From the NCBI GenBank assembly GCA_030529365.1, contig JAUMXB010000008.1:8271-72270 (forward strand): 64,000 nucleotides of DNA. The letters run 5' to 3'. The DNA comes from Cardiobacteriaceae bacterium (GTDB lineage: Bacteria > Pseudomonadota > Gammaproteobacteria > Cardiobacteriales > Cardiobacteriaceae). This document shows, one piece after another, positions 3,577 through 55,054 of this stretch. The notes under the pieces were generated by a model. It was given only the letters and a program-made list of their open reading frames with translations, did no database searches and was not told where the DNA came from. Numbering within the stretch: position 1 is the stretch's first letter; every line of letters begins with the position of its first letter. The position numbers and the translations under genes were made by a program.

Positions 3577-3668
3577 TCATGAGAAATTTTCTCATGATGA
3601 AGCGCTTATTGTGAGAAAATTCCCCGATAAAAGCACTTATTGATGAGAAAAATATATTATTTTTCAGG
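3577..3668. repeat. type-1 palindromic-unit repeat, copy 1
   Basis: GAGAAATTTTCTCATGATGAAGCGCTTATTGTGAGAAAATT..AAGCACTTATTGATGAGAAAAATATATTATTTT; abuts dsbB stop. Confidence 0.7.
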
Positions 3669-4197
3669 AAAAATGATTTTTTGGTGCTTGGGTGCGGCGG
3701 CGTTCGCTCACGATGCAGGCGAGAAGCAGGGCAATGAAAAGTATCATCGACCAGGTGGGGATGGTCAGGGCGAACATGCCTTCCAGCGGCCAGGTGTCTT
3801 TGGTGGCGCAGTCGCCCGTGCCCATCATAGCTTTGGCGAGGCCGCTGAAGAAGGGGGTGTTTTCCATCAGGCCGTAGAAATCGAGGCCGCAGGCGGGCAC
3901 TTCGCCTTCGGGCAGGCTCTGGATATGGAGATGGCGGGCGGCGAGGCCGATGCCGAAGAAGATGCTCAGGTATTTGCCGGTTTTCATGACGACGCTGCCC
4001 ACGGTACCTTGCGGCCACAGCGCGGCATCGAGGAGGAACATGAGGCCGATGAGGGCAAAGGCGATGCGCTGCATGATGCAGAGCGGGCAGGGCGAGAGGT
4101 AGAGGGTTTTTTCCAGATAGAAGTAGGAAAAGGCGATGGAGGCGAAGCAGCCGAGGCCTGCGAGGAGAAGGGTGAGGCGGCGTGTGGAGTCGGTCAT
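3664..4197 (-). CDS. dsbB: disulfide bond formation protein B
   Basis: 177 aa, four hydrophobic segments, CPLCIMQR (CxxC) in first periplasmic loop and second Cys pair (PACG) as in DsbB. Confidence 0.85.
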   Translation of the reverse strand: MTDSTRRLTLLLAGLGCFASIAFSYFYLEKTLYLSPCPLCIMQRIAFALIGLMFLLDAALWPQGTVGSVVMKTGKYLSIFFGIGLAARHLHIQSLPEGEVPACGLDFYGLMENTPFFSGLAKAMMGTGDCATKDTWPLEGMFALTIPTWSMILFIALLLACIVSERRRTQAPKNHFS

Positions 4198-4359
4198 GGG
4201 AAGTGTCCGTAAGGCAAAGGGGCATTTTATAGCGAATGCTGTGGCAAATCATGTTGCGGGCGGAAAGGCAGCGTTGCCGGTGCGCGGGGTGTGCACGCGC
4301 CGGAAGGATGCCTTTATAATGTGTTTCCTTTGTTCGGTCGGGCTGTTGCCGGAGATGTG

Positions 4360-4725
4360 ATGGATTTTCTTGATGATATGCGCACGGCGCTGGATTTGCT
4401 GGAGGCGGAGATGCGCGGTGTGGGCTGGTGGCAGCAGGTGTCGCCCGCTCCCGAGGCGCTCGCGAGTGTGGAGCCATTTTGTGTGGACTGCCTGACCTTT
4501 AGCGAATGGTTGCAGTGGGTGTATATTCCGAAGATGCACGCCTACATGAATCAGCACGGGCGCTTGCCGGCAGCGAGCGGACTGGTGCCGATTGCCGAGG
4601 AAGCGTGGAAGGGCAGCGCGGAAGATACGCGGCGTTTGCATGAGATCGTGGCGCTGCTCGATGCGCTGGTGGCGGGCGATCGCGATGCGCTGCCGGTTTT
4701 TTTGAAGGGAATGGTCAGGCACTGA
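4360..4725 (+). CDS. YqcC-like protein (DUF446)
   Basis: 121 aa from ATG at 4360 preceded by GGAGA; ..EPFCVDCLTFSEWLQWVYIPKMH.. matches the conserved QPFCMDTLEPEQWLQWVFIPRM core of YqcC. Confidence 0.6.
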   Translation: MDFLDDMRTALDLLEAEMRGVGWWQQVSPAPEALASVEPFCVDCLTFSEWLQWVYIPKMHAYMNQHGRLPAASGLVPIAEEAWKGSAEDTRRLHEIVALLDALVAGDRDALPVFLKGMVRH

Positions 4726-5204
4726 TGAAGCAGAAAAAGAGCTGGAAGAATATCGCGGCGCCGGTGCTGGCGCTGCTGGCATTGGCGATTGCGACGCTGC
4801 CCGATGTGCTGCGCGACTGGCAGGCGCAGCAGGCGGAGCCGTCGTCCTTGCCGCAGGTTGTGCAGCCTGCGGACAATCAGGCGCTGTTTGCCCTGATGGC
4901 GCACAAGCGCGGCGGCGAGATGGTGGCCGGTTATGGCGTGGTGCAAAAAGTGCTGAAGGATGACAATGATGGCAGCCGGCACCAGCGTTTTATCCTGGAT
5001 GTGGGGCAGGGCAAGACGCTCCTGGTGGCGCACAATATTGATCTTGCGCCGCGCGTGGCCAATCTGAAAGAGGGCGATACGGTGCGGTTTTTCGGGCAGT
5101 ACGAGACGAATCACCGCGATGGCGTGCTGCACTGGACGCACCACGATCCCGCCGGACGCCATGCACATGGCTGGCTGGAGCATCAGGGCAAGCGCTATCA
5201 GTAG
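4725..5204 (+). CDS. DUF3465 family secreted protein
   Basis: N-terminal signal peptide; RHQRFILDVGQGKTLLVAHNIDLAPRV..GDTVRFFGQYETNHRDGVLHWTHHDPAGRH..GWLEHQGKRYQ typical of DUF3465; start overlaps stop of YqcC gene. Confidence 0.55.
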   Translation: MKQKKSWKNIAAPVLALLALAIATLPDVLRDWQAQQAEPSSLPQVVQPADNQALFALMAHKRGGEMVAGYGVVQKVLKDDNDGSRHQRFILDVGQGKTLLVAHNIDLAPRVANLKEGDTVRFFGQYETNHRDGVLHWTHHDPAGRHAHGWLEHQGKRYQ

Positions 5205-5245
5205 CGCCGTCCTGAAAAAGACCATCAGCCGATATTGGCGGCATG

Positions 5246-5350
5246 TTTCAATTTTTTCTCTAAAATAGTCATTTTTTCTCAACAATAAGCGCTTTATATG
5301 AGAAATTTTCTCGCAACAAGTGCTTATTGTTGAGAAAATTTCTCATTCCG
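5246..5350. repeat. type-1 palindromic-unit repeat, copy 2
   Basis: ..TTCTCAACAATAAGCGCTTTATATGAGAAATTTTCTCGCAACAAGTGCTTATTGTTGAGAAAATTTCTCATTCC; upstream of acnA. Confidence 0.75.
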
Positions 5351-5429
5351 GTTTGGCAATACATTTACCTCGCACCCTGAATGGCTTACAATAAGCGCCT
5401 CATAATTCATAACTATTCGTGAGGCTCTG

Positions 5430-8054
<2,625 letters not shown>

Positions 8055-8061: not shown

Positions 8062-8156
8062 TTCAAAAAATAACGATTTATCGTAATTTTTTACCATATA
8101 TAAGCGCTTATCGTGAGAAAATTTCTCAAGATAAGCGCTTGGTATTGGTAAAAAAA
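8062..8156. repeat. type-1 palindromic-unit repeat, copy 3
   Basis: AAAAATAACGATTTATCGTAATTTTTTACCATATATAAGCGCTTATCGTGAGAAAATTTCTCAAGATAAGCGCTTGGTATTGGTAAAAAAACACC; 8 nt after acnA stop. Confidence 0.8.
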
Positions 8157-8589
8157 CACCATGGTCTTTCAACTCAAAAATCCGCAACCGTCCTCTCCCA
8201 TATGGGTGGAACAAATGCGGGCTGGAGAGCATCCATGAACAACAGCCGCATTTTCATGGATGCCCGCGGTTCGCGACAAGCGAGACCCAGCGCAGATGGA
8301 AAAGTGTTGGGGCGTACGGTTATCGCATTTCGGCAGGCTCAATAACCGCCGGTCGAGATGCAGCACCAACCTGCATTTGCTCCGTCTGTTTGGCAGGATT
8401 TGGTATGGATTTTCGGGTTGAATGGCTGTATTTCGATGGTTTTTGGGGAGAATTCTCCGGCTCATGGGATTTTTGCAGGGTGTGTGCCGCACAGCAGCAA
8501 GTACGCGGTTTGTGATGGTTGCGGTATTTGCCGGGCCACGCTGCGGCAAGCCAACCTGCAACCGCTTTGCGGCGGGGATTTCCATCCAC

Positions 8590-10561: not shown

Positions 10562-10657
10562 GTGATTTTTTTACCATCATCGCAGTTTTGATGCAATGCT
10601 TTTATCACGATAAGCGCTTGTTCATGATAAAAAATAACGATTTATCACGGTTTTTTG
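10562..10657. repeat. type-1 palindromic-unit repeat, copy 4
   Basis: GTGATTTTTTTACCATCATC..TTATCACGATAAGCGCTTGTTCATGATAAAAAATAACGATTTATCACGG. Confidence 0.7.
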
Positions 10658-10807
10658 TCAATATTTTTTGTGATCCTGGCACTGGATATACGGGAGTGCG
10701 CAGCATTGTTTGATGCCCCAGAAGAGGACTCGAACAGCGACTTGGCATGTGCCGGCAATGACGCCGTGGCGGATGCCTGAAAGGAATGGCAGCTTTTTTC
10801 TTGCAAT

Positions 10808-10898
10808 ATGAGAATTTTTACCACCCATAAGCGCTTAAGTGAGAAATTTTCTCGTTATAAGCGCTTTAGAATGGTAAAAAATAACGATTTAGACGGTT
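10808..10898. repeat. type-1 palindromic-unit repeat, copy 5 (overlaps stop codon of SIS gene)
   Basis: ATGAGAATTTTTACCACCCATAAGCGCTTAAGTGAGAAATTTTCTCGTTATAAGCGCTTTAGAATGGTAAAAAATAACGATTTAGACGG; element terminal ..CGATTTA supplies the TAA stop (10889-10891, minus strand) of the adjacent CDS. Confidence 0.75.
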
Positions 10899-14406: not shown

Positions 14407-14447
14407 GGGGATAGTCCTTTTGGGTAAAATGATGGCAGAAAAGCGGG

Positions 14448-14538
14448 GTGGTAAAATTTCTCATCATGAAGCGCTTATAGCGATAGATTTTCTCACGATA
14501 AGCGCTTATTCGTGGTAAAAAATTACTATATTTGTCTT
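14448..14538. repeat. type-1 palindromic-unit repeat, copy 6
   Basis: GGTAAAATTTCTCATCATGAAGCGCTTATAGCGATAGATTTTCTCACGATAAGCGCTTATTCGTGGTAAAAAATTACTATATTTG. Confidence 0.8.
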
Positions 14539-18560: not shown

Positions 18561-18583
18561 TCAGGGCTCCTTTTTTGGGTGAG

Positions 18584-18670
18584 TGGTAAATTTTCTCATC
18601 ATGAAGCGCTTATGTTGAGAAATTTTATCGCCATAAGCGCTTACGGGTGGTAAAAAATTACTATTTTGAG
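18584..18670. repeat. type-1 palindromic-unit repeat, copy 7
   Basis: GGTAAATTTTCTCATCATGAAGCGCTTATGTTGAGAAATTTTATCGCCATAAGCGCTTACGGGTGGTAAAAAATTACTATTTTG. Confidence 0.8.
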
Positions 18671-18898: not shown

Positions 18899-19432
18899 TC
18901 ACGACACCAGCTCCAGCATTTTTGCGAGCGTGTTGCGGTTGCGGGTGGTGAGCGCGATGCGCAAGCGTTTTTCCAGCGCGTTGTTGGAGAGTTTGCTGCG
19001 CGAGGCGTCGCCGGGGATGTGCATATAGAGGGCGTGTTTGCCTGCGGCGAGCTGGCTGTCGCCAAAATCTTCCGCGAGTGCGGCGGCAAGGTACGCGGCA
19101 TCGGGAACGTCGTTGGCAAGAGTGTAGAAAACGCGTGCGGGATCGGCATCAGGGAAAGGTTGTTCGGCGAGAATGGCGGTGAGTTGTGCCGCGTTTTTGA
19201 CGATGACGGCGAGGTCAACGCCAAGTTCGCGCTGCAATATATCGTGCACGCGGGTGGCAATTGTGGCGGCATCGTCGGCGCTTGCGAGGGCGATGTTGCC
19301 GTTTTGGATCCAGCTGCGCACGTCGGCAAGGCCGTGTTTTTCGGGCGCTTCACGCAGGGCGTCCATTTTCACGGCGTTCTTGCCGCCGGGCATGACGCCG
19401 CGCAGGAATACGGCATGACGGAAAAGAGACAT
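18899..19432 (-). CDS. DUF1697 family protein
   Basis: 178 aa from Met57 (MSLFRHAVFLRGVMPGGKNAVKMDALRE..); the 56-codon N-terminal extension in the track ORF is read-through into the adjacent type-1 repeat. Confidence 0.7.
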   Translation of the reverse strand: MSLFRHAVFLRGVMPGGKNAVKMDALREAPEKHGLADVRSWIQNGNIALASADDAATIATRVHDILQRELGVDLAVIVKNAAQLTAILAEQPFPDADPARVFYTLANDVPDAAYLAAALAEDFGDSQLAAGKHALYMHIPGDASRSKLSNNALEKRLRIALTTRNRNTLAKMLELVS

Positions 19433-19547
19433 TCGGCGCTCCGCAGTGGGGACAAAAAGAGCGGAAGGGCGGGGGAAACAAGGAGCCTTTTTGGTAAAAA
19501 AGATACCCGCCGCTTCCGCAAGCTGAAGATGCCTTTTGGAATAACAA

Positions 19548-19632
19548 TGGTGATTTTTTATCATTATGAAGCGCTTGTTGTAGTAAAAATTCGCTATCAA
19601 AGCGCTTCAAAATGGTAAAAAACGATTATTTA
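19548..19632. repeat. type-1 palindromic-unit repeat, copy 8 (overlaps stop codon of SBP gene)
   Basis: GTGATTTTTTATCATTATGAAGCGCTTGTTGTAGTAAAAATTCGCTATCAAAGCGCTTCAAAATGGTAAAAAACGATTATTTA; terminal ..GATTATTTA supplies TAA stop (19626-19628, minus). Confidence 0.7.
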
Positions 19633-22183: not shown

Positions 22184-23444
22184 TCCCGTGGCCGAGCGCA
22201 TCGCCGCGCACAAGCAAAGCGGACGCGGCGGCATAGTTTCCGTGTGCAGCGCCCATCCCGCCGTGGTCGATGCCGCTGTCGATATCGCGCGCGATTATGG
22301 CGACGTGCTCCTGATCGAATCCACCTCCAACCAGGTCGATCAGTTCGGCGGCTATACCGGCAAGAAACCCGCCGAATTCATCGCGGAAACGCGCGCGCGC
22401 GTCCTCGCGCAAGGCTTTCCCGAAGCAAAACTCGCCTTCGGCGGCGACCACCTCGGCCCCAACGTCTGGCAGGGCTTGCCGGCAGCGGAAGCCATGAACT
22501 ATGCCGACGAACTCATCCGTCATTATGCCGCCGCCGGTTACGACAAAATCCACCTTGATTGCAGCATGAGCTGCGCCGACGATCCGGTGCCGCTTGATGA
22601 CGAAACCGTGGCGCGCCGCGCTGCGCGTCTCTGCAAAATCGCGGAAGCGTACAAAACGCGCGACATCGTCTATATCATCGGCACCGAAGTGCCGGTGCCG
22701 GGCGGCGCGCAGGAAGATCTCGCCGAACATGGCGTCACCCCAACCTCGCCCGAAGCCGCCAAAATCACCTGGCAAGTGCATGAGCGCATCTTTGCCGAAG
22801 AAGGGCTTGCCGAAGTGTGGCCGCGCGTCATTGGCCTCGTCGTGCAGCCCGGCGTCGAATTCGATCACCATCAGGTCATCGATTATCAGCCCGAGCACGC
22901 GCAAGCGCTTTCCCAAGTGGCTGAAGGCTTCAAACATGCCGTCTTCGAAGCGCATTCCACCGACTACCAAAATGCCCCCGCCTTCCGGCAACTGGTGCGC
23001 GACCATTTCGCCATCCTGAAAGTTGGCCCCGCGCTCACCTTTGCCTACCGCGAAGCGCTCTTTGCCCTCGAAGCCGCGCTTGCCGATTACCACGGCACGC
23101 CGTACCCCGGCGCTTTCCGCGCGGCCGTCGAAAAACTCATGCTCGAGCAGCCCAAATACTGGCAGAAATACTATGAGGGCGACGAACAGGAACAGCGCCG
23201 CCTGCGCGCCTTCAGCCTCTCCGACCGCATCCGCTATTACTGGCCGCAACTGGCAGAACCGGTGGCAACGCTCCTCGCCGACTTTGATGCCGCGCAGATT
23301 CCCTTCGGCATCATTCACCAGTACCTGCCGCATGCGCTCGATGAAGCGCACAACCGGGGCGAAGCGCCGAGCGCGGAGAATCTGATTCGTCACCATATTC
23401 GCGCAGCGTTGAAACCGTATTACGACGCCTGCATGGCATCGTAG
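22164..23444 (+). CDS. kbaZ: D-tagatose-bisphosphate aldolase non-catalytic subunit, KbaZ/GatZ family
   Basis: 426 aa; N-terminal ..GIVSVCSAHPAVVDAAVDIARDYGDVLLIESTSNQVDQFGGYTG.. matches the GatZ/KbaZ signature. Confidence 0.8.
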   Translation: MKSMNTNPVAERIAAHKQSGRGGIVSVCSAHPAVVDAAVDIARDYGDVLLIESTSNQVDQFGGYTGKKPAEFIAETRARVLAQGFPEAKLAFGGDHLGPNVWQGLPAAEAMNYADELIRHYAAAGYDKIHLDCSMSCADDPVPLDDETVARRAARLCKIAEAYKTRDIVYIIGTEVPVPGGAQEDLAEHGVTPTSPEAAKITWQVHERIFAEEGLAEVWPRVIGLVVQPGVEFDHHQVIDYQPEHAQALSQVAEGFKHAVFEAHSTDYQNAPAFRQLVRDHFAILKVGPALTFAYREALFALEAALADYHGTPYPGAFRAAVEKLMLEQPKYWQKYYEGDEQEQRRLRAFSLSDRIRYYWPQLAEPVATLLADFDAAQIPFGIIHQYLPHALDEAHNRGEAPSAENLIRHHIRAALKPYYDACMAS

Positions 23445-23445
23445 G

Positions 23446-23465
23446 GTGGGTGTCAACCCACCGTC
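23446..23465. repeat. type-4 hairpin motif GGGTGGGTGTCAACCCACC
   Basis: GGGTGGG-TGTCA-ACCCACC hairpin directly after kbaZ stop; near-identical motif at 2338-2356 and 30911-30930. Confidence 0.45.
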
Positions 23466-23550
23466 GCGAAGCGATGGCAGGTTGGGAAACACCGGCTTTG
23501 CATGTTGGCGTTTGTTATGTGATGTTGCCTTTCGCAAAAGGGCTATAAAT

Positions 23551-23632
23551 GATGTTTTTTACCATTAAAAAGTGCTTCTTTTAAGAAAATTTTGCATGGC
23601 AAGCGCTTGTTGGTGAGGAAAAAATACTATTG
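23551..23632. repeat. type-1 palindromic-unit repeat, copy 9 (degenerate)
   Basis: GATGTTTTTTACCATTAAAAAGTGCTTCTTTTAAGAAAATTTTGCATGGCAAGCGCTTGTTGGTGAGGAAAAAATACTATTGC. Confidence 0.65.
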
Positions 23633-27195: not shown

Positions 27196-27225
27196 AAACC
27201 GCCGGAAACGGCGGTTTTTTCATAT
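27196..27225 (+). terminator. rho-independent terminator after PTS IIBCD genes
   Basis: AAAAAACCGCCGG-AAA-CGGCGGTTTTTT 20 nt after EIID stop. Confidence 0.6.
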
Positions 27226-27241: not shown

Positions 27242-27325
27242 GAAATTTTCATTGAAACATTATTTATAATAATTTTTTCTCATCAATAAGCACTTATCGC
27301 GGTAAAAACAATCTATCATAATCAT
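27242..27325. repeat. type-1 palindromic-unit repeat, copy 10 (degenerate)
   Basis: ..TTTTTTCTCATCAATAAGCACTTATCGCGGTAAAAACAATCTATCATAATC. Confidence 0.6.
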
Positions 27326-27395
27326 TTTTATGGTATATTTTGTCAATGCCTTGTCTTGTCATTTCTTCCTTTTGTCATCTGCCGGAGAAAACACC

Positions 27396-28023: not shown

Positions 28024-28110
28024 AAAAATAGATATTTTTTCTCAAAAATAAGCGCTTATTATGAGAAAATTTATCGCAACAAGCGCTTTGGAGTGAGAAA
28101 AAATACTATT
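28024..28110. repeat. type-1 palindromic-unit repeat, copy 11
   Basis: AAAAAATAGATATTTTTTCTCAAAAATAAGCGCTTATTATGAGAAAATTTATCGCAACAAGCGCTTTGGAGTGAGAAAAAATACTATTCC. Confidence 0.8.
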
Positions 28111-28327
28111 CCGGGGAAGGAAATGTAAAAGTTGCCCGGGAAGGCGGCCAGGCATGACCCGTTGCCGTTTCCGCCGCTTTCCGTGCGATTTTTTTCCATC
28201 ATGACAAAGTGTTGCTGTCTTTATTTGCATGGCGGCGGCAAAGGAACCGTTTTTCGCTGTACTTTCTTGCGCGCTCTTGTAAAAATAAACCCCGTGTAAC
28301 AAAAGCGCCATAAAGGGGACACCATAT

Positions 28328-31048: not shown

Positions 31049-31096
31049 ATCGCTTCGCCATACCGCATGGGCTGTGGTTGTTTTGTCAGTTTGCAA

Positions 31097-31181
31097 TGAG
31101 ATTTTTTATCATTAATAAGCGCTTATATCGATAAAATTTCTCATCATAAGCGCTTATGTTTGGTAAAAAAATACTATTTTT
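31097..31181. repeat. type-1 palindromic-unit repeat, copy 12
   Basis: GAGATTTTTTATCATTAATAAGCGCTTATATCGATAAAATTTCTCATCATAAGCGCTTATGTTTGGTAAAAAAATACTATTTTTG. Confidence 0.8.
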
Positions 31182-31219: not shown

Positions 31220-31247
31220 TTGACCCATTCCAAACACGGCGTATAAT
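31220..31247 (+). promoter_or_regulatory. sigma70 promoter of DEAD-box helicase gene
   Basis: TTGACC-N16-TATAAT; leaves a ~180-nt 5' leader, as is common for cold-induced DEAD-box helicase genes. Confidence 0.55.
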
Positions 31248-32941: not shown

Positions 32942-33000
32942 TCCGTTCTGCTTTTTATTGATTTGTTTATATAAAATGGGATAATTTCCCATTGTAATCT

Positions 33001-33062
33001 GATTTTATGATAATTTTTATCGCAATAAGCGCTTAATGATGGTAAAAAAATATCTATATTTG
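33001..33062. repeat. type-1 palindromic-unit repeat, copy 13 (single unit)
   Basis: GATTTTATGATAATTTTTATCGCAATAAGCGCTTAATGATGGTAAAAAAATATCTATATTTGG. Confidence 0.7.
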
Positions 33063-35305: not shown

Positions 35306-35316
35306 TTTTATAAAAT

Positions 35317-35372
35317 TTATAGTGATTTTTTACCGAGATAAGCGCTTATTAGTGGTAAAAAAATCACTATTT
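35317..35372. repeat. type-1 palindromic-unit repeat, copy 14 (minimal element)
   Basis: ATAGTGATTTTTTACC-GAG-ATAAGCGCTTAT-TAGT-GGTAAAAAAATCACTAT: perfect 16-bp terminal inverted repeats around one ATAAGCGCTTAT unit; fills the whole TBDR-MFS intergenic gap. Confidence 0.85.
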
Positions 35373-35373
35373 T

Positions 35374-37584
35374 TTATTCAAAATGGTATTTGAAAGCAAT
35401 GCCGTAGCTGCGACCTTCGCCAGGATAGCCGGTGGGCTCGGCAAAGCCGTCCGGCAAATAGGCGTAGCGGAAATAGCGGCGGTTGGTGAGGTTGCGTCCC
35501 CAGAGGAGAATTTCGCCTTTGCCGTTGGCGATGCCGAGCGAGGCGTCGATCAGGGTGTGGGCGGGCAGGGTGTAGCGGTTATTGGGTTCGGCGGCGCGTT
35601 TGCCGGTATGGGAGAGATCGGCGCGGGCGATGAGTTCGGCGTCGTTCACAAAGGAGAGCGGCAAGGCTTTGCGGTATTCCACGCCAAGACGCACGGCGAC
35701 GCGCGGTACTTGCGGGATGCGGTTGCCTTTGCGGGTGATGTTTTGCTCGGTTTTGCCGATGCGGGTGACTTCGGCGTTGGTCAAGCTCAGGGAACCGTCG
35801 AGGCGCAGGCCGGGCGTGATGCGGTATTCGCCGCTGACTTCCACGCCCTGGCTGCGTGTATCGACGTTGAAAGATTCAGTGAGGAAACTCGGGTAGAGGG
35901 CCACGCTGATTTTGTCGTTTTTGACGCGGTTGTGGAAAAGGGCGCTGGCGAAGGTGAAGCGCTCGCCTTCGCCTTTCACGCCGATTTCGAAGGCGTCGAT
36001 ATGGCCGGCGTGGTAGGGTGTGTCGCTTTTGCCGTAGGCGAGGTTGGTGGAAAAGTCGCTAAAGCCTGCCGATTTGTGGCCGCGCGAGTAGAGGCCGTAG
36101 AGGTGCCAGTCGGGGGTGAAAGCGTAGTCGAGACCGAGGCGGCCAGTGAGCGCGGTGTGGCTGATGTTTTGCGCGTCGCTTTGTGCGCCGTTTGCACCGA
36201 GCGGATTGCCGGGATTGGGATGCCATTCGGCACGGTAGCGCGTTTTTTCATGCGCAAGGCGCGCGCCGGTGATGATTTTGACGTTTTCGCCGACAGGCCA
36301 GGTGGCTTCGCCGAAGATCGCCTGGCCGCTTGTGCGATAGCGGCGATGGAGTTCGGCGTTGTAGGCGTCGGCATTGAGCGGCGGCATGGGCGCGGGGAGA
36401 GGGAGAAGGTTGCGCCGCGCGTCGTAGCGGAAATCGCGTTGCCGCTCCTGGAGGTAGAGTCCTGCTACCCATTGCACAGGTGCGTCGGGCAGGGCAGTGA
36501 AGCGGAATTCCTGCTCGATTTGGCGTACGCGGTCGTGCTGATGCTGGCGGTTGTTGGCGGTTTGATTGAAGAAGGCGTCAAGTTTGGGCTGCAATGGCGC
36601 GGGAACATTGAGCAGGCGATAACGGGCGGGCAGGCCGTCGAGGGTGAGATAGCCGGTGCGCAGGTGGCCGTCGTGATCGCTGTAGCGCGTGAGCGAGTCG
36701 AAGCGGAAATGTGCGCTTTCATGATGCACATCGAGATGTGCGCCCGTGCTGTCGCGGCGGCTGCGGTAATCCAGCGCGCCCTTGGCAAATTGCGGTGTTT
36801 TGTCGATCGGCGGAAACAGCATGAGGGGGAGGAAATTGTTTTTGCGGTCGTGATAGAGGGTGAAGAGCAAGTCGGTGGCGGGCGCAATCTGCCAACGGAA
36901 TTTGCCGCGAATGCCCGTGCTGCGCTGGGTATTGAGCGTTTTACCGGTGGCACGCTCGCGCACGTAGTCGTCGCGCCATTCGCCCATGGCTGCTACACGC
37001 GCAGCCATGTTTTCATTGAGCGGGATATTGACGGCGGTTTTCAGCTGCTTCAGATGGTTGTTGCCAAGTCCGGCTTCGATGTCGGCGGCAAAGTGCGCTT
37101 CAGGATCGCGGCTGTGGATATTGACGATGCCGACTTCGGCGTTGTGGCCGTAAAGCGTGCCTTGCGGGCCTTTGCCAATTTCGATGCCGTCGATGTCGTA
37201 GAGATTGCGGGCAAGGCCGAAAACGCCCTGTGACGCGCCATCAAAGCGCAAGCCCACGGTGTTGTCATCGAGCGAGGCGTGCGAGAGCGAGCCGGTACCG
37301 CGTACCCACAAAAAAGAATTGCCGGGGTCGCCGCCGCTTATGATTTCGATGCCCGGCGTGTGGCGGATGCTGTCTTCGGCGGCGCGAAATTGGCGGCGTT
37401 CGATGGTTTCCTGATCCAGGGTTTGCACGGAAAGCGGCACGGCCACGCTGCTTTCACTGATGCCGCGTACTCGCACGACGATGGGATCGAGCACAACGGT
37501 ATCGCTGGCATCATGATGCTCTTGGGCATGGACAGCGCCCAGTACGGCAAGGATCGCAGTGGCGAGCAGGGTTTGGCGAGGCAT
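35374..37584 (-). CDS. TonB-dependent siderophore receptor
   Basis: 736 aa; signal peptide, TonB box-like DTVVLDPIVV, plug and 22-strand barrel regions. Confidence 0.9.
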   Translation of the reverse strand: MPRQTLLATAILAVLGAVHAQEHHDASDTVVLDPIVVRVRGISESSVAVPLSVQTLDQETIERRQFRAAEDSIRHTPGIEIISGGDPGNSFLWVRGTGSLSHASLDDNTVGLRFDGASQGVFGLARNLYDIDGIEIGKGPQGTLYGHNAEVGIVNIHSRDPEAHFAADIEAGLGNNHLKQLKTAVNIPLNENMAARVAAMGEWRDDYVRERATGKTLNTQRSTGIRGKFRWQIAPATDLLFTLYHDRKNNFLPLMLFPPIDKTPQFAKGALDYRSRRDSTGAHLDVHHESAHFRFDSLTRYSDHDGHLRTGYLTLDGLPARYRLLNVPAPLQPKLDAFFNQTANNRQHQHDRVRQIEQEFRFTALPDAPVQWVAGLYLQERQRDFRYDARRNLLPLPAPMPPLNADAYNAELHRRYRTSGQAIFGEATWPVGENVKIITGARLAHEKTRYRAEWHPNPGNPLGANGAQSDAQNISHTALTGRLGLDYAFTPDWHLYGLYSRGHKSAGFSDFSTNLAYGKSDTPYHAGHIDAFEIGVKGEGERFTFASALFHNRVKNDKISVALYPSFLTESFNVDTRSQGVEVSGEYRITPGLRLDGSLSLTNAEVTRIGKTEQNITRKGNRIPQVPRVAVRLGVEYRKALPLSFVNDAELIARADLSHTGKRAAEPNNRYTLPAHTLIDASLGIANGKGEILLWGRNLTNRRYFRYAYLPDGFAEPTGYPGEGRSYGIAFKYHFE

Positions 37585-40149: not shown

Positions 40150-40252
40150 TTTATGAGAAAAATGAAGTAAATTTACCAATGATAAGCGCTTTCCGTGAGA
40201 AAATTTATCGAACAAAGCGCTTTTTGGTGAGAATATTTACCATTTTCTGTTG
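40150..40252. repeat. type-1 palindromic-unit repeat, copy 15
   Basis: TTTATGAGAAAAATGAAGTAAATTTACCAATGATAAGCGCTTTCCGTGAGAAAATTTATCGAACAAAGCGCTTTTTGGTGAGAATATTTACC. Confidence 0.75.
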
Positions 40253-40334: not shown

Positions 40335-40410
40335 GATGAGAAATTTTCTCATTCATAAGCGCTTTTGGTGAGAAATTTTCTCGCACAAAGCGCTTTTTGG
40401 TGGTAAGAAA
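40335..40410. repeat. type-1 palindromic-unit repeat, copy 16
   Basis: GATGAGAAATTTTCTCATTCATAAGCGCTTTTGGTGAGAAATTTTCTCGCACAAAGCGCTTTTTGGTGGTAAGAAACT. Confidence 0.75.
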
Positions 40411-40424
40411 CTGTTTTTTTGCAG

Positions 40425-42719: not shown

Positions 42720-42734
42720 GAAAATATCGTTGCT

Positions 42735-42810
42735 TTTTATCAAAATCAAGCGCTTATCGTGAGAAATTTTCTCTATACAAGCGCTTAAACTTGAGAAAAT
42801 TTACCAAACA
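42735..42810. repeat. type-1 palindromic-unit repeat, copy 17
   Basis: TTTTTATCAAAATCAAGCGCTTATCGTGAGAAATTTTCTCTATACAAGCGCTTAAACTTGAGAAAATTTACC; ends ~3 nt before cysE start codon. Confidence 0.75.
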
Positions 42811-46390: not shown

Positions 46391-47229
46391 AGCCAGCTTT
46401 CCGCATTGCCCTGTGCAGTCTTGCCCTTGCCCTCTTTCCCGTTCAGGCAACGGAAAATGAACACGAAATACGCCTGGGCGATGTATTCAACATCTTGCTC
46501 GGCGCCTACAACGGCGCTGCCGATGTCGCCGAGCAGCGCGGCCATCCCTTCGCCGAGCGTTTGTCCACGGAAGATGCGCAGCGCCTCGAGCGCGGCCTGA
46601 ACCATTTGCAGGAAGAGCTTCGCGGACTGGTGCGCACGGACGGCACGCTGGACAGCAAGCGTGCCGCCGAACTGCTCAACGAATTGCAGCAATTGCGCAG
46701 CGACGGCAAGCGTTTTGATTTCGTGCAGGCGGAAGAAGCGCTGCGCCGCGCCGACAGCGAAGGAAACCTTGGCCTTGACAGCGTGCTGGGCGTCGTGATC
46801 AGCGCCGGCAGCGCGGCATTGTCGGCAGAAGTCGGCGAGCTCAAGGCGCTTGCCGCCGAACAGATGGGCAGCGCACCCTATCGTGGCGACAGCGTGCTCG
46901 TCGATCTGCTCAAACTCGTCTATGCCGACCGCGAACTCGACAGCGTGGATGCCGCGCGCGAGGAAAAAGCGCATAAGCTGCTGGCCGACGTGCTGGCCAA
47001 AGGGCAGGTGAGCGAAGCGCGCTACGAGGAAATCCGCAGGCTGCTCGACGCCATCGGCCGCCCCTTCAGGGACGATTACAAGGCCTGGGAACGCGGGCGC
47101 GACAAGATTGTGCGCCGCGAGCTGAAAATGCGGGAAATGAACGACGTGATCGGCGTGTTGCAAAACAAGGATTTGACGCCGGAACAGCGCGAACAGATTC
47201 TGCGTGCGTTACAGCCTGACAAGAAATAA
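46387..47229 (+). CDS. hypothetical secreted coiled-coil protein
   Basis: 280 aa; signal peptide MKPAFRIALCSLALALFPVQA; 4-nt overlap with previous gene. Confidence 0.55.
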   Translation: MKPAFRIALCSLALALFPVQATENEHEIRLGDVFNILLGAYNGAADVAEQRGHPFAERLSTEDAQRLERGLNHLQEELRGLVRTDGTLDSKRAAELLNELQQLRSDGKRFDFVQAEEALRRADSEGNLGLDSVLGVVISAGSAALSAEVGELKALAAEQMGSAPYRGDSVLVDLLKLVYADRELDSVDAAREEKAHKLLADVLAKGQVSEARYEEIRRLLDAIGRPFRDDYKAWERGRDKIVRRELKMREMNDVIGVLQNKDLTPEQREQILRALQPDKK

Positions 47230-47231
47230 GT

Positions 47232-47320
47232 AAAAATAGTTATTTTTTACCATAATGAAGCGCTTGTTGTGAGAATATTTCGCATAACAAGCGCTTTTCT
47301 TTGAGAAAATTTACCATTCG
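47232..47320. repeat. type-1 palindromic-unit repeat, copy 18
   Basis: AAAAATAGTTATTTTTTACCATAATGAAGCGCTTGTTGTGAGAATATTTCGCATAACAAGCGCTTTTCTTTGAGAAAATTTACC. Confidence 0.8.
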
Positions 47321-47338
47321 GACAAATCAGGCGGACAA

Positions 47339-48175
47339 TCAGGGCGTGAGCCAGGGATTGTCCGGCGCGCAGAGTACGCGGGCGTTGATGTAGGCCATGT
47401 CGAGGCTGATGACGTTGCGCACGGTGTATTTGCCGCGGGCAGCATCTTTTTCCATGACCAGCGCCATGTCGGCGATGTTGTCGCGGATGATGCACAGCGG
47501 CAGAAGAAGCTGGATGCGGTTGTCGTACCAGTGCGGCACGGCCAGGCGGTAATTGCGGCGCAGGCGCTCCATGAGTTGCAGGATGGCGCCTTCGAGGGCG
47601 TTGCGCGCCAGCGCCGGATTGCCGCGCAGCACTTGCGGCAGGCGGTCGCCGCTTTCGTGAAGGATGTAGTGGTAGTCGGTTTCCACATCGAGGCGGTGGT
47701 CGAAGACGAGATCGGCAGGGTCGTCCACATAGCTGGCGATGTCGGGCAATGGTTCGAATTCGCTGACTTTGTCGGAGTGGGCATCAAAGAAGCCGAAGAG
47801 CGTCCAGTCCGGCTGGTTGTATTCCAGCGCGCCGTGGTTGCGGTAGAAGGTGGCGTAGATGTCTTTGCCGCGGGTGGTTTGCAGGCCGGTGTTCAGGCAG
47901 GCGCGCGAATCGTCGCTGCTGTAGCGGATTTTGCCCTGCTCTTGCAGGCGGAGGAAGGTGTGGTTGAGATAGGCCTGGAGAATGGGATAGTCGCGGCCCT
48001 GGCGGCGCCGGTTGGGGCGGCTGAAGTTCCAGGCTTCGGGGCGGGCTTTTTCGGCGAGGCGCTGGAAGGGGGTTTCCCAGGTTTCGCCCTGTTCTTCACG
48101 CCAGGGAAAGTGGGCGAATACGCTGCGGTTGTCTTGTTCTCTGTATCGTTTGGAAAGGCTTTCGTACATTGTCAT
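47339..48175 (-). CDS. conserved hypothetical protein (possibly DUF3825-like)
   Basis: ~278 aa from internal Met (MTMYESLSKRY..); track ORF N-terminal 64 codons look like read-through; family uncertain. Confidence 0.45.
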   Translation of the reverse strand: MTMYESLSKRYREQDNRSVFAHFPWREEQGETWETPFQRLAEKARPEAWNFSRPNRRRQGRDYPILQAYLNHTFLRLQEQGKIRYSSDDSRACLNTGLQTTRGKDIYATFYRNHGALEYNQPDWTLFGFFDAHSDKVSEFEPLPDIASYVDDPADLVFDHRLDVETDYHYILHESGDRLPQVLRGNPALARNALEGAILQLMERLRRNYRLAVPHWYDNRIQLLLPLCIIRDNIADMALVMEKDAARGKYTVRNVISLDMAYINARVLCAPDNPWLTP

Positions 48176-48386: not shown

Positions 48387-49238
48387 ATGAACGACGAATC
48401 CTCCGGGTCGAAACCTTCGTGGTTTGAAAAACTTTCCGGCTTTTTCGGCGATAACGGCCAGGACGATGCGCCCAGAAAAACCCTTGCCAATCTGATTCAC
48501 CAGGCCAGGGATGACGGTCTGCTTGCCGGGGAGACGGCGCAGATGATGGAGGCGTTGCTGCATATCGGCAATATGCAGGTGCGCGATACCATGATTCCGC
48601 GCGGGCAGATGATTCTGATTGAAGATCATTGGTCTTTGGAGAAGGTGCTGGCCGTAATCATTGATGCCGGGCATTCGCGCTATCCGGTGGTGGATGCCGA
48701 CCACAAGCACATTCGCGGCATTCTCATCAGCAAGGATTTGCTGGCGCTGCTTGCAAGCGGCGAGGAAAATCCCGATTATCTTTCCTGCATCCGCAGCGCC
48801 ACCATCGTGCCGGAGAGCAAGCGGCTGGATGCGATGCTGCGCGATTTCCGCAGCAACCGCAACCATATGGCGATGGTGATGGATGAATACGGCGATCTTT
48901 CCGGGCTGATTACCATCGAGGATGTGATCGAGGAGATTGTCGGCGATATTGACGACGAGCATGATGAAGTGGCGGATGAGCCGATTGTCGCCAATGCTGA
49001 CGGCAGTTTCCAGGTGAAGGCGCTGACGCTGATTGCCGATTTCAACGAGCATTTCGGCACGCGCCTGTCGGACGAGGATGCTGATACCATCGGTGGCTTC
49101 GTGGCCCAGTATTTCGGGCGCATGCCGGTTCAGGGCGACAGTTTCGAGCTGGAGCCGTGGCAGCTGAGCGTGACCAAGGCCAACCAGCGCCGTGTGATCA
49201 GTCTGCTGGTGCGGCCGTTGCCGGCATCTGGTGATTGA
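48387..49238 (+). CDS. corC: CorC/HlyC family Mg2+/Co2+ efflux protein (tandem CBS + CorC_HlyC domain)
   Basis: 283 aa from Met29 of track ORF; two CBS domains, C-terminal transporter-associated domain. Confidence 0.85.
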   Translation: MNDESSGSKPSWFEKLSGFFGDNGQDDAPRKTLANLIHQARDDGLLAGETAQMMEALLHIGNMQVRDTMIPRGQMILIEDHWSLEKVLAVIIDAGHSRYPVVDADHKHIRGILISKDLLALLASGEENPDYLSCIRSATIVPESKRLDAMLRDFRSNRNHMAMVMDEYGDLSGLITIEDVIEEIVGDIDDEHDEVADEPIVANADGSFQVKALTLIADFNEHFGTRLSDEDADTIGGFVAQYFGRMPVQGDSFELEPWQLSVTKANQRRVISLLVRPLPASGD

Positions 49239-49267
49239 TTTTGTTTGATATTCTATTTTTTGCTTAA

Positions 49268-49355
49268 AAATAGTTATTTTTTCCCACCATTAAGCGCTTG
49301 TTGCGAGAAATTTTATCGCAACAAGCGCTTAATGGTGGGAAATTTTCTCATTCCG
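49268..49355. repeat. type-1 palindromic-unit repeat, copy 19
   Basis: AAAAATAGTTATTTTTTCCCACCATTAAGCGCTTGTTGCGAGAAATTTTATCGCAACAAGCGCTTAATGGTGGGAAATTTTCTCATTCC. Confidence 0.8.
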
Positions 49356-49402
49356 CTTAGGGCAAGCAGAGGGTGGCAGTCGCCCTGCATGGCCCGTTTC
49401 CT

Positions 49403-50344
49403 TCAGAACACGCCGGTATCGCGCCAGGCGAGCAGTTCGTCGCGACTGATGACGAGCACGCCTTCGCCGCCGCGTTCCAGTTCCGCCCAGTCGAAGGCAA
49501 CCTGAGGATAGGCAGCTTCCAGCAGCGGCCAGCTCATGCCCACTTCAAGCACGAGGATGCCGTCTTCGCCGAGATAATCGGCTGCTTCGTGAAGCAGGCG
49601 GCGGGTGAAATCGAGGCCGTCTTCGCCGGATACCAGTGCATGGCGCGGTTCGTGCAGAAACTCGGCGGCGATGCTGTCCATTTCCGCGGCTTCGACGTAG
49701 GGCGGGTTGCACAGGATCCAGTCGAATCCGCCGTCGGCGAGGTCGTCCACGGCGGAGAGACCGTCGCCCTGCACGAGGATGATGTCGTTTTCCAGACCGT
49801 AGGCCTCGACGTTGAGCATGGCGACATCGAGCGCGTCATCATCGATGTCGGCGAGCACGACTTCCGCTTCCGGGCAGGTGAGGGCGGCAACGATGCCAAT
49901 GCAGCCGCTGCCGGTGCAGAGATCAAGAATGCGTGCAGGCTCGCGTTCTTCCGGCCACCACGGCGCGAGACGCTTTTCGATGAGTTCGGCAATCGGCGAG
50001 CGCGGGATGAGTACGCGTTCGTCAACCTGGAATTCGTAGCCGCCATAGAGGGTGCGACCGGTCAGGTAGGGTACGGGCATGCGCTCATGGATGCGGCGGT
50101 GCAGGGCATGGTGCAGCCGCTCGCGTTCCTCGGGCAGAAGAACGGCGGAAAAATAGTCGTGATGCAAATCAAAGGGCAGGTTGAGGAGGCCGAGAACGAG
50201 GGCGGCAGCTTCGTCGAGCGGGCTGCTGGTGCCATGTCCGTAATGAACGTCGCTTGCCGCGAGCTTTGAGGCGGCATGGCGAATCCAGTCGCGCAGGGTG
50301 GTGAGAACTTGCGGCAGAGGGGGAGTGAGGGCAGTGTGCGGCAT
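49403..50344 (-). CDS. prmB: ribosomal protein L3 N5-glutamine methyltransferase
   Basis: 313 aa; SAM motif ..ILDLCTGSGCIGI.., NPPY catalytic motif. Confidence 0.8.
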   Translation of the reverse strand: MPHTALTPPLPQVLTTLRDWIRHAASKLAASDVHYGHGTSSPLDEAAALVLGLLNLPFDLHHDYFSAVLLPEERERLHHALHRRIHERMPVPYLTGRTLYGGYEFQVDERVLIPRSPIAELIEKRLAPWWPEEREPARILDLCTGSGCIGIVAALTCPEAEVVLADIDDDALDVAMLNVEAYGLENDIILVQGDGLSAVDDLADGGFDWILCNPPYVEAAEMDSIAAEFLHEPRHALVSGEDGLDFTRRLLHEAADYLGEDGILVLEVGMSWPLLEAAYPQVAFDWAELERGGEGVLVISRDELLAWRDTGVF

Positions 50345-52449: not shown

Positions 52450-52532
52450 TTGGTAAAAAGTCACCATTAAAAGCGCTTATGATAGAGTTTTTTTATCGCA
52501 ATAAGCGCTTGTTGGTGAGAAAATTTACCATA
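52450..52532. repeat. type-1 palindromic-unit repeat, copy 20
   Basis: GGTAAAAAGTCACCATTAAAAGCGCTTATGATAGAGTTTTTTTATCGCAATAAGCGCTTGTTGGTGAGAAAATTTACC. Confidence 0.8.
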
Positions 52533-53503: not shown

Positions 53504-53727
53504 CCGAACCCCAGAGCCTTGAAAACCGCCTGAAAGCCCTCGCCGAACTCGTCGAGCAACTGGAACGCGGCGACATCCCTCTCGAAGAAGCGCTGCGCCA
53601 GTATGAACAGGGCATCGCCCTTGTGCGCGAATGCCAGCGCCAGCTCACTGAAGCCGAACAAACCATTCTTCGCCTCCAGCAAAACGGCGAACGCGAAACC
53701 CTTGTGCCGTTTCATGAGGAAGATTGA
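53500..53727 (+). CDS. xseB: exodeoxyribonuclease VII small subunit
   Basis: 75 aa; ..FEQALAELE.-like core (LKALAELVEQLERGDIPLEEALRQYEQGIALVRECQ). Confidence 0.85.
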   Translation: MTEPQSLENRLKALAELVEQLERGDIPLEEALRQYEQGIALVRECQRQLTEAEQTILRLQQNGERETLVPFHEED

Positions 53728-53806
53728 AAGCACAAAAAAGCAGGGTGGGAGTATGCAAGTTTGATTCGTCTGAAGCCCCCAGTTAGCTACGAAGTGTTTC
53801 AATCCC

Positions 53807-53990
53807 CTGGGCGCAGCCGCAGAAGCGGGGCTTTTTTGGCGGGGACACGGGCTTGGGTGTTTGAGCGACAGCGAGTTTACAAGCCCGCCGCCAAAAGCCC
53901 CGCGGCAAGGGAAAACTGCGCCCCGGGGTCGCTTTTCTTTGCCTACTTTCTTTGGCGACGCAAAGAAAGTAGGTGGCCGCGCGGCCATGA
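53807..53990. repeat. cluster of inverted repeats in xseB-ispA spacer
   Basis: ~38-bp arms CCCCTGGGCGCAG..GCGGGGCTTTTTTGGCGG (53807-53845) and inverted partner (53885-53929); perfect 13-bp hairpin CCTACTTTCTTTG-GCGACG-CAAAGAAAGTAGG (53943-53974); 14-bp palindrome TGGCCGCGCGGCCA (53975-53988). Confidence 0.5.
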
Positions 53991-54051
53991 AGCGCAATCT
54001 CGAAAAAAGCCCTAATCCCCATCTTTACATCCAACATATTTCCCAAACCCC

Positions 54052-54921
54052 ATGACCCCCACCGACCTTCTCCCCCGCTGGCAACAACGCAGCGAAGCAC
54101 AACTCGCCGCCGCGCTTCCCGATGACGGCAGCCGTCTCACCGCCGCCATGCGCTATGCCCTGCTCGATGGCGGCAAGCGCCTGCGCGCCGCGCTCATCCA
54201 TGCCACCGCCGCCGATTTCGCCGTGCCGCCCGAGGCCGTGGATGCTGCCGTGTGCGCCGTGGAAGCCATTCATGCCTATTCCCTCATCCATGACGACCTG
54301 CCCGCCATGGACGATGACGACCTGCGCCGCGGCAAACCCAGTTGCCACAAGGCCTTCGACGAAGCCACCGCCATTCTCGCCGGCGATGCGCTGAATACGC
54401 TCGCTTTCGAATGGCTTGCGGCAAGCGCCTTGCCGGCTGACGTGCGCCTCGCGCAAATCCGCGTGCTGGCGCAGGCTGCCGGCTATCAGGGCATGGTCGC
54501 CGGGCAAAGCCTCGACATGGCGCACACCGGCACCGCCGCCGATCTTGCTACTTTGCAAACCATCCACCGCGGCAAAACCGGCGCATTGCTTGCCGCCAGC
54601 CTGCATTTGCCAGCGCTGGCTAGCGCCGATTACGCCGCGCACCGTGCAACCCTCGACACTCTCGGCGAACATCTGGGCCTGCTCTATCAAATCAGCGACG
54701 ACATCCTCGACGCCACGGCCGACAGCCAAACGCTTGGCAAAACCGCAGGCAAGGATGCGGCGCAAGACAAAACCACCTATATCAGCCTGCTCGGCCTTGA
54801 CGCGAGCCGCGCCGAAGCGGAGCGCCATTACCGTGCGGCGCTGGCCTGCTGTGCGCAATTGCCGGGGCAGGGGCAGCATCTTGCCGCGCTGCTGGCGCGG
54901 ATATACCGGCGCAGTCACTGA
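54052..54921 (+). CDS. ispA: (2E,6E)-farnesyl diphosphate synthase
   Basis: 289 aa; first and second Asp-rich motifs IHDDLPAMDDDDLRRG and ..ISDDILD.. Confidence 0.9.
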   Translation: MTPTDLLPRWQQRSEAQLAAALPDDGSRLTAAMRYALLDGGKRLRAALIHATAADFAVPPEAVDAAVCAVEAIHAYSLIHDDLPAMDDDDLRRGKPSCHKAFDEATAILAGDALNTLAFEWLAASALPADVRLAQIRVLAQAAGYQGMVAGQSLDMAHTGTAADLATLQTIHRGKTGALLAASLHLPALASADYAAHRATLDTLGEHLGLLYQISDDILDATADSQTLGKTAGKDAAQDKTTYISLLGLDASRAEAERHYRAALACCAQLPGQGQHLAALLARIYRRSH

Positions 54922-54944
54922 CAGCGGGGATCTCATTTTGAATG

Positions 54945-55054
54945 TGAGAAATTTTCTCATATATAAGCGCTTATGGTGAGAAAATTTATCGTGATAAGCG
55001 CTTTAGTATGAGAAAATATATCGCAATAAGCACTTTTAGGTGAGAAGTTTTACC
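54945..55054. repeat. type-1 palindromic-unit repeat, copy 21 (longest, three GAGAAAAT units)
   Basis: GTGAGAAATTTTCTCATATATAAGCGCTTATGGTGAGAAAATTTATCGTGATAAGCGCTTTAGTATGAGAAAATATATCGCAATAAGCACTTTTAGGTGAGAAGTTTTACC. Confidence 0.85.

Follow-up and report, generated by a model that had tools for sequence, protein, structure and literature searches.

A phased, AT-rich palindromic-unit repeat in the gaps after gene ends of an uncultured Cardiobacteriaceae bacterium

Introduction

Repetitive extragenic palindromic (REP) sequences and bacterial interspersed mosaic elements (BIMEs) are thought to act both as protein sites (gyrase, IHF, Pol I) and as RNA hairpins, and the SMAG repeats of Stenotrophomonas reportedly reach about one copy per 3 kb. 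Among the MITEs of bacteria (miniature inverted-repeat transposable elements), ERIC is present in 711 copies in Photorhabdus, and Correia elements lie mostly upstream of genes and carry promoters (PMC10969869). Short genomic words without such an element form another class: the dialects of the DNA uptake sequence (DUS) differ between lineages (PMC3630211), the core of the uptake signal sequence (USS) is flanked by helically phased T-tracts (PMC3458573), and the cyanobacterial HIP palindromes, whose word classes have been listed, occur at 1–2 per kb with lineage-specific one- or two-base extensions (Elhai 2015, PMC4390886). Here we describe a new, clade-specific, non-coding mosaic repeat of the REP/BIME type from Cardiobacteriaceae, a family in which Dichelobacter nodosus is naturally transformable (PMC3480457). 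The repeat was analysed in a stretch of 64 kb, called the window below, from an uncultured member of this family (assembly GCA_030529365.1, contig JAUMXB010000008.1, positions 8,271 to 72,270).

The original prediction for this DNA had announced a dense, uncatalogued family of 21 MITE-like copies and had named a non-autonomous transposon, a dispersed array of binding sites and a terminator or insulator as candidate roles. The patterns of conservation reported here suggest that the element may work on duplex DNA as a phased array of two recognition words.

Material and methods

The window belongs to a metagenome-assembled genome (MAG), of which these 64 kb were covered; the best named relatives by AcnA are Suttonella species (78–81% identity). 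Four proteins of the window are identical to NCBI MAG proteins in the range MDO4776987–MDO4777014, which are encoded on a contig of 88,863 bp. For the copy census, an nhmmer profile was built from 7 copies and run over the 64 kb. Gene maps were drawn from Pfam and NCBIfam domains, and a second set of genes was taken from a codon-usage gene caller. A scan of a genome collection yielded a second carrier, MAG S30M_Sa_23, which accounts for at least 52 of at least 56 loci among the matches listed. Its genes are 80–93% identical to those of the window, and it is therefore treated as a sister species (sister MAG); its loci were chosen for containing the element and are a biased sample. For comparison of orthologous regions, three sister-species loci (L024, L030 and L043), two loci from closer strains (L057 and L058, AcnA 97–98% identical) and a contig from a closely related strain (L185) were used.

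Results

The canonical element is ~100 bp long (consensus about 102 bp) and is composed of units A-B-A-B-A in a fixed period of 31 bp, unit B being AAGCGCTT and unit A TGAGAAAnTTTCTCA or its T6-ACC variant. Centres of neighbouring A and B units are ~15.5 bp apart, and 31 bp corresponds to about three helical turns; consecutive B units were spaced by exactly this distance in 96 of 108 cases. Arrays of the forms A-B-A, A-B-A-B-A and A-B-A-B-A-B-A were seen. The unit number had been predicted to vary from copy to copy, and one-, two- and three-B forms do exist, but two-B forms dominate (16 of the 22 arrays in the window, 85 of 134 in the sister MAG); the other two seem to have lost or gained one 31-bp period. 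When 64 oriented copies from the sister MAG were aligned, information content fell sharply to zero at both ends; the boundaries of the element are sharp. The element is polar, with a left end (ATTnCATAAAA-N5-)AAAAATAGTGATTTTTTACC and a right end TGAGAAAATTTCTCAT, and the full consensus reads ATTnCATAAAA-N5-AAAAATAGTGATTTTTTACC-ATnATn-AAGCGCTT-ATCG-TGAGAAATTTTCTCA-CGAT-AAGCGCTT-nnTGA-TGAGAAAATTTCTCAT; its ACC and GAG triplets (alignment columns 37–38 and 92–93) are non-complementary. The minimal copy, credited earlier with perfect 16-bp terminal inverted repeats, has near-matching arms that differ by one T (T6 versus T7).

The profile search recovered exactly the 21 copies that had been listed and no others in the window. 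Allowing up to one mismatch, ATAAGCGCTTAT occurred 15 times against 0.06 expected and GAGAAAATTTCTC gave 25 strand-hits against 0.11 expected. GC content of the elements was 0.301, as announced, and that of the backbone was 0.603 rather than ~63%; the elements make up 3.4% of positions 3577–55056. The density of one copy per ~3 kb is high, but its description as far above that of known families was overstated in view of the 711 ERIC copies in Photorhabdus (PMC10969869). The family can stand as uncatalogued: Rfam gave no match at gathering score in the 64 kb (a lone chance miRNA match had E = 0.15), BLAST of the element against plasmids and phages returned nothing relevant, and literature searches by sequence and by taxon found no description of it.

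Constraint on the element was analysed by comparison of copies and of orthologous loci. In the nhmmer-defined census, B cores were exact in 256 of about 275 instances, and 9 of the about 19 variants were CpG transitions (AAGTGCTT, AAGCACTT), the one possible hint of a cognate methyltransferase; linker columns were unpaired or variable in 23–42 of 75 copies (30–55%). Both copies that flank acnA were in place in the two closer strains (the one at 5262, which also occupies the same site in sister-species locus L024, and the one at 8080), with linkers and half-site triplets changed and cores intact. Within regions shared with the sister species, four of five window copies have a counterpart with unchanged orientation and an unchanged junction or distance. 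The junction of the copy at 47233 is identical in L043, an orthologue of the copy at 49267 lies at the end of the same locus, and the copy at 28025 has orthologues in L030 and L185. Orthologous copies of the window and the sister species were 68–73% identical, and the adjoining spacer, at 20–51%, was effectively random. These comparisons point to sequence-level constraint on the unit cores. Whole-element gene conversion cannot account for this because the linkers were not homogenised, and the simplest reading of core retention would be selection, or drive on the words themselves.

Copy content was also found to change. The gatZ-agaS gap holds two copies in L185 and, in the window, one copy plus a GC-rich REP; the convergent gap at 47 kb has an extra copy in the sister MAG; and in the IID-EIIA gap an extra one-B copy (27260) and a DUF6630 gene are present in the window and absent from L185 and L030. 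Since the copy content of gaps differs between close relatives, gain and loss of copies do occur, which implies copy-paste spread at some time. The DUF6630 gene (27396–27908) is flanked by the one-B and a canonical copy (27260–28111); the gene and the extra copy resemble a cassette that was gained as a whole, perhaps when copies of the element recombined.

The core octamer of unit B was counted outside the elements as well. Among 96 composition-matched palindromic octamers, AAGCGCTT ranks first both in the window (11 occurrences, next 6) and in the sister MAG (38, next 22). Over-representation is modest in the window's own genome, where about 3 would be expected from dinucleotide shuffles of the full window and 11 were observed (18422, 22903, 29262, 43541, 43871, 45416, 57573, 58421, 60759, 61074 and 63695, all in called coding regions). 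Far higher densities were met in two relatives. L062 (1–22628; Logan SRR33398665_18909), from a relative at 49% GC with an AcnA 80% identical, carries 97 AAGCGCTT in 22.6 kb (4.3 per kb), usually as GAAGCGCTTC, of which 88 lie in genes (frames 54/18/16). L187 (1–7343; Logan SRR32406235_11757), whose AcnA is 83% identical to that of L062, carries 23 in 7.3 kb (3.1 per kb) as CAAAGCGCTTTG, in all frames. Neither contig has an A word or an element. Suttonella ornithocola, S. indologenes, TAE3-ERU3 and a relative at 36% GC have little or no AAGCGCTT.

It is reasonably probable, given these patterns, that the element is a phased array of recognition words acting at the level of duplex DNA and that B is read by a factor shared within the clade. 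We infer a double-stranded protein-site array because it is the sequence of the words that is kept over time, not their pairing and not the linkers; and a factor shared across this part of Cardiobacteriaceae is suggested because AAGCGCTT is over-represented outside the elements and in relatives that lack them. A dispersed binding-site array, one of the candidates in the original prediction, fits the data better than a MITE does (invariant cores, free linkers, weak covariation, orthologous copies amid randomised flanks) and is retained as a candidate.

The behaviour of AAGCGCTT in L062 and L187 looks like that of an uptake sequence or of an iterated palindrome of the HIP1 type. By this analogy AAGCGCTT might be a self-DNA tag of the Cardiobacteriaceae clade, either a third family of uptake signals besides DUS and USS, the first to be palindromic, or a word like HIP1 that is tied to methylation-linked repair and found outside the cyanobacteria, with the element as its carrier. 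Lineages at ~50% GC would then carry the word bare, in genes and with lineage dialects, and the 60% GC lineage would carry it mainly as a pair, with phased A/T tracts on its flanks, within a 100-bp module that had been driven into almost every tolerant gap, e.g. by preferential uptake or repair of the fragments that carry it. We regard this proposal as possible but unlikely.

A low-GC island (window 1–3400, about 34% GC; also L061 1–10793) holds the end of a non-ribosomal peptide synthetase (NRPS) cluster (MbtH, NRPS, SHMT, EamA, GMC oxidoreductase, PPTase) followed by a tyrosine recombinase; neither an element nor AAGCGCTT is present in it. A metagenome scan for clustered AAGCGCTT gave no element and returned unrelated 21-bp satellites and GC-rich arrays. 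The contigs concerned are unrelated (L097, L169 and L183 at about 40% GC; L127, L135, L148 and L160 at 60–66% GC) and carry the word in 21-bp tandem satellites (AAAGCGCTTTGGTGTGTGTAAA) or in dense non-coding cgAAGCGCTTc arrays with 25–100 bp spacers.

Placement relative to genes was analysed for the 21 copies of the window, which are as follows (strand given where a copy could be oriented; scores are from nhmmer).

Copy 1, 3579..3663, minus strand: two B; abuts the dsbB stop (3664; DsbB by Pfam) and borders the low-GC island; 50.0 bits.
Copy 2, 5262..5347, plus strand: canonical A-B-A-B-A in the co-directional gap between a DUF3465 gene and acnA; 74.2 bits.
Copy 3, 8080..8162, unoriented: two B, both ends of the left type, in the convergent gap that separates acnA from a cytochrome c peroxidase gene; 56.1 and 51.5 bits (two strands).
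Copy 4, 10566..10643, minus strand: degenerate, one B, in the LysE/SIS gap; 27.0 bits.
Copy 5, 10808..10890, minus strand: two B; overlaps the NagB-II/SIS stop (10889; NCBIfam NagB-II); 53.1 bits.
Copy 6, 14447..14532, minus strand: canonical, in the gap between a DHDPS-family gene and an ABC ATPase gene (Pfam); 79.3 bits.
Copy 7, 18582..18667, minus strand: canonical, in the permease/DUF1697 gap; 76.7 bits.
Copy 8, 19546..19631, minus strand: two B; overlaps the SBP_bac_5 stop (19626; Pfam); 39.0 bits.
Copy 9, 23549..23631, unoriented: diverged, two B, in the gatZ-agaS gap, where it adjoins a GC-rich REP (23440–23465); 39.0 and 37.5 bits.
Copy 10, 27260..27325, unoriented: one B, after a canonical terminator (27198–27212) and upstream of the DUF6630 gene.
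Copy 11, 28025..28111, plus strand: canonical, upstream of the PTS EIIA-man gene; 70.6 bits.
Copy 12, 31096..31180, minus strand: canonical, between the ptsI terminator (30875–30899) and the DEAD-helicase promoter (31220–31247); 65.9 bits.
Copy 13, 32976..33060, minus strand: one B, in the convergent DEAD-helicase/SIP gap, 8 nt from the SIP stop (Pfam); 34.8 bits.
Copy 14, 35317..35373, unoriented: minimal symmetric A-B-A that fills the TBDR-MFS gap; RNA fold −20.2 kcal/mol, z = −5.4.
Copy 15, 40169..40245, plus strand: two B, first of two in the convergent gap between a histidine kinase gene and PTS-EIIA2; 51.5 bits.
Copy 16, 40336..40412, minus strand: two B, second in the same gap, 12 nt from the EIIA2 stop; 58.4 bits; TRF period 32.
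Copy 17, 42723..42806, plus strand: two B; fills the gap between gcvT and a hexapeptide transferase gene (Pfam); 60.1 bits.
Copy 18, 47233..47319, plus strand: canonical; fills a 109-bp convergent gap, starting 3 nt after the stop; 73.2 bits.
Copy 19, 49267..49352, plus strand: canonical, in the convergent gap between corC and a methyltransferase gene; 82.6 bits.
Copy 20, 52455..52531, plus strand: two B, in the mlaA-rsgA gap (Pfam); 39.7 bits.
Copy 21, 54944..55056, unoriented: the sole three-B copy, in the ispA-putA gap; nhmmer hits; TRF period 32, 2.7 copies.

As had been predicted, all 21 copies are intergenic, both by the Pfam-supported maps and by the codon-usage gene calls, and none lies within the low-GC island (1–3400), which copy 1 borders; the two stop codons overlapped by copies (10889 and 19626), the filling of the TBDR-MFS gap (35305–35374) by one copy and the copy that ends just 5′ of the ATG at 42813 were likewise found. 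Across all loci, 0 of 78 oriented copies lie in coding sequence. Of the window's gaps of at least 50 bp, 14 of 19 co-directional, 5 of 5 convergent and 0 of 5 divergent ones are occupied (Fisher p = 0.002), and of the 59 copies over all loci that lie between two called genes, only 2 are in divergent gaps (binomial p = 2e-4, expectation 20%). The family is thus excluded from promoter-only (divergent) gaps and present in most gaps after a gene end.

The elements act as neither promoters nor canonical terminators. Promoter-like hits overlap some copies at inconsistent positions, and a promoter inside the element was rejected. The terminator or insulator role that had been proposed fared poorly too: the terminator scan picked out no copy, what comes after the consensus stem is GAGAAAA or GGTAAAAAA and no U-tract, two copies come after canonical terminators, and one of these (31096) sits between a strong terminator and a TTGACC-16-TATAAT promoter. 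Separate from the element, phased A-tracts (AAAACCATAAAAACCAACAAAAACA) lead into this near-consensus sigma-70 promoter (31195–31247) 5′ of the DEAD-box helicase gene.

Artefacts of annotation and assembly were noted at several copies. The long DUF1697 ORF (18899–19600) starts inside copy 8, and its N-terminal extension is probably artefactual, as had been suspected, because the Pfam match covers the protein from residue 61 onwards and a start near 19432 agrees better with codon usage. The Logan short-read contig L061 ends (10764–10793) inside a copy that matches window 3579–3663, and several sister-MAG contigs begin or end in a copy. The repeat therefore breaks short-read assemblies and lengthens predicted ORFs.

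Several points weigh against the reading of the element as an array of words on duplex DNA, which is drawn from conservation patterns. Copy detection leans partly on the B core and so inflates its apparent invariance; the nhmmer-defined census, however, gives the same picture. With 19 of 24 eligible gaps occupied, the sharing of gaps between species is in itself weak evidence of common descent, and the case for descent comes from matching junctions or distances at four sites. The consensus core is a perfect palindrome with a 25-bp stem and would therefore give a long hairpin from either strand; copies treated as RNA fold strongly on both (z −2.8 to −10). Inner linkers alone show a small pairing excess (z = 3.0), and on the left-to-right strand G.T mismatches exceed A.C mismatches (157 versus 89). 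The element may therefore have a role at the transcript level or as single strand.

A role of this kind would make the element a hairpin at gene 3′ ends that stabilises or processes mRNA, as for REP, ERIC and Correia, or a bidirectional terminator or insulator. It would suit the facts that every copy follows at least one gene end, that a stop codon is no more than 20 nt away from 9 of the 21 copies, that the convergent gaps 47229–47339 and 49238–49403 hold nothing else, and that hairpins of −20 to −44 kcal/mol (z −4.5 to −10) are predicted, besides the mismatch bias and the inner-linker pairing just mentioned. However, copies face the upstream gene with either end at random (23 versus 20); the bias that the window seemed to show, with the left end beside the upstream stop, was gone in 78 copies. 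The lack of a U-tract and of terminator calls and the position of copies 27260 and 31096 downstream of canonical terminators count against it as well. Covariation was marginal: whole-hairpin pairing over 75 copies was 84.7% versus 83.5% in shuffles, 2/500 and 5/500 shuffles reached the observed value, and the tool warns that relatedness alone can give this range. The early impression of compensating linkers across the whole hairpin came from hand-picked examples and was dropped. In the same 75 copies the half-site triplets of unit A (CTC, ACC, ATC, TGC) showed no covariation (z = −0.04), and a left-end hairpin (AAAAA-N-loop-N-TTTTTT), perfect in few copies, was rejected at 63.1% paired versus 64.4% shuffled. 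With pairing barely above shuffles, triplets without covariation and the left-end hairpin rejected, structure is at most a minor constraint. The RNA-fold consensus check thus gave strong predicted hairpins and weak covariation, and conservation of the words goes far beyond what pairing needs; an RNA-level element is rather unlikely.

The label MITE would make the family a non-autonomous derivative of an insertion sequence (IS), mobilised in trans by a DDE transposase through its terminal inverted repeats and otherwise functionless. Small size, AT-richness, intergenic position, high copy number and sharp bounds would be expected of it, some copies do have matching ends (e.g. 35317, 8080 and L030), the copy number per gap varies between close strains and species, and the DUF6630 gene lies between two copies in this strain only. 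No target-site duplication was found at either candidate left boundary, the mean boundary direct repeat being 2.06 nt against 2.00 ± 0.12 in shuffled flank pairs, and information content in the right flank was zero. Canonical ends are unlike in 78 of 95 two-B copies, with left-type ends on both sides in just 9, and all 95 differ in sequence, which gives no hint of a recent burst. In the 64-kb window and the selected loci of relatives, no transposase adjoins any copy. The sole one met, at L185 9100–9651, is an IS200/IS605-type Y1 pseudogene with its own GC-rich end hairpins, 3′ of the DEAD-box helicase gene and absent from the window; considered as a mobiliser, it was rejected as unlinked to the element. 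Nor would neutral decay leave cores intact while linkers and flanks are saturated. The label therefore did not survive, and a classical MITE is improbable.

Spread of the palindromic units as REP sequences by a domesticated Y1 (RAYT) transposase that recognises them would account for extragenic position at gene 3′ ends, the palindromic-unit mosaic without target duplication (all REP/BIME behaviour) and positional stability. The same genomes, however, contain a GC-rich REP of the classical type, headed by GTAG (GTAGGGTGGGTGTCAACCCACC / GCAGGGTGGGCTTTGCCCCACC), the obvious substrate of a RAYT, at 23440–23465 and 30836–30858 in the window and in many copies in the sister MAG, where it often follows directly after the right end of the AT-rich element (e.g. 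L010, L018, L040, L047 and L049). The AT-rich element has no conserved GTAG-like head beside a hairpin, its left-end hairpin failed as described, and no RAYT gene lies beside a copy in the 64-kb window (the MAG loci were not screened for RAYT); a REPIN/RAYT system is quite improbable.

That the palindromes are operators of one regulon, dimeric transcription factor sites that control the neighbouring genes, deserves hardly any credence and is effectively refuted by placement: both units make good sites of dyad symmetry (the core of B, TAAGCGCTTA, is presumably similar to the operator cores of the LacI family, and unit A has what we take to be the 7-1-7 shape of Fur-family boxes), but promoter-only gaps are avoided (0 of 5 in the window, 2 of 59 across loci), the neighbours are unrelated housekeeping genes, and it is always the same 100-bp module with sharp ends. 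Unit A was also compared with the consensus sites of CRP, Fis, Lrp and H-NS; no fit was convincing and the idea was dropped.

Discussion

For the element as a phased array of words on duplex DNA, the following course is proposed. Two palindromic words, A and B, in fixed register form a polar module of ~100 bp; a copy-paste process that leaves no target duplication would have spread it; and the module now sits in most gaps after gene ends and is kept out of divergent gaps. Proteins would read the words on double-stranded DNA, and candidate processes are binding of the nucleoid or gyrase type, as in BIMEs, uptake of DNA, and methylation-linked repair.

The family is a clean case of a maintained dispersed repeat, and it is a good system for asking what REP-like elements do because its words survive where the neighbouring spacer has been randomised. 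It also links mosaic intergenic repeats with hyper-abundant short words (uptake sequences, HIP1), which are usually studied apart, its core being the octamer that floods the genes of sister lineages. Should AAGCGCTT prove to be an uptake or methylation signal, such systems would extend to a new bacterial family, and the word would provide a simple marker for native versus imported DNA, the NRPS island without AAGCGCTT being a case in point.

REP sequences and BIMEs of E. coli and other Proteobacteria resemble the element most closely in behaviour: they are extragenic, lying behind gene ends or in co-directional gaps and seldom in divergent promoter regions, and they are mosaics of a variable number of palindromic units, without target duplication and positionally stable between strains. 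The mosaic form is analogous only, as there is no sequence similarity to E. coli palindromic units. Typical REPs are GC-rich, whereas the element is AT-rich, with 30% GC against 60% for its genome; its two palindromes are unrelated and strictly phased at 31 bp, instead of one unit in alternating orientation; and it has polar, unlike ends and no GTAG head, with a separate classical REP in the same genome. The Caulobacter repeat CIR (CcrM-associated intergenic repeat; PMC10969869), an intergenic repeat with sites for a genome-wide DNA-recognition system, is likened to it by its name as given in that source.

Bacterial MITEs (Correia/NEMIS of Neisseria, ERIC, RUP) share with the element a length of ~100 bp, AT-richness, intergenic position, high copy number, a long hairpin and a copy number that varies between strains (PMC10969869). 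The element differs from them in having no target-site duplication and, in canonical copies, no terminal inverted repeats, and from Correia elements in avoiding promoter gaps.

With DUS of Neisseriaceae and USS of Pasteurellaceae, the B word has in common its over-representation, which is strong in the sister lineages L062 and L187 and modest in the window's own genome outside the elements (about 0.7 AAGCGCTT per kb in the window as a whole), its occurrence in all three frames in sister lineages and its frequent pairing downstream of genes. Lineage dialects of the flanks (GAAGCGCTTC versus CAAAGCGCTTTG) recall DUS, and the A/T tracts on either side of unit B recall USS; known uptake sequences, however, are non-palindromic and are not carried on a sharp-ended 100-bp module. 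HIP1 (GCGATCGC) and the other cyanobacterial iterated palindromes are different words in another phylum, and in the window genome AAGCGCTT is mostly inside the larger repeat rather than free in genes. Like them it is an 8-bp palindrome, hyper-abundant in genes and in all frames, and its density in L062 and L187 (3–4 per kb) is at or above the 1–2 per kb of HIPs.

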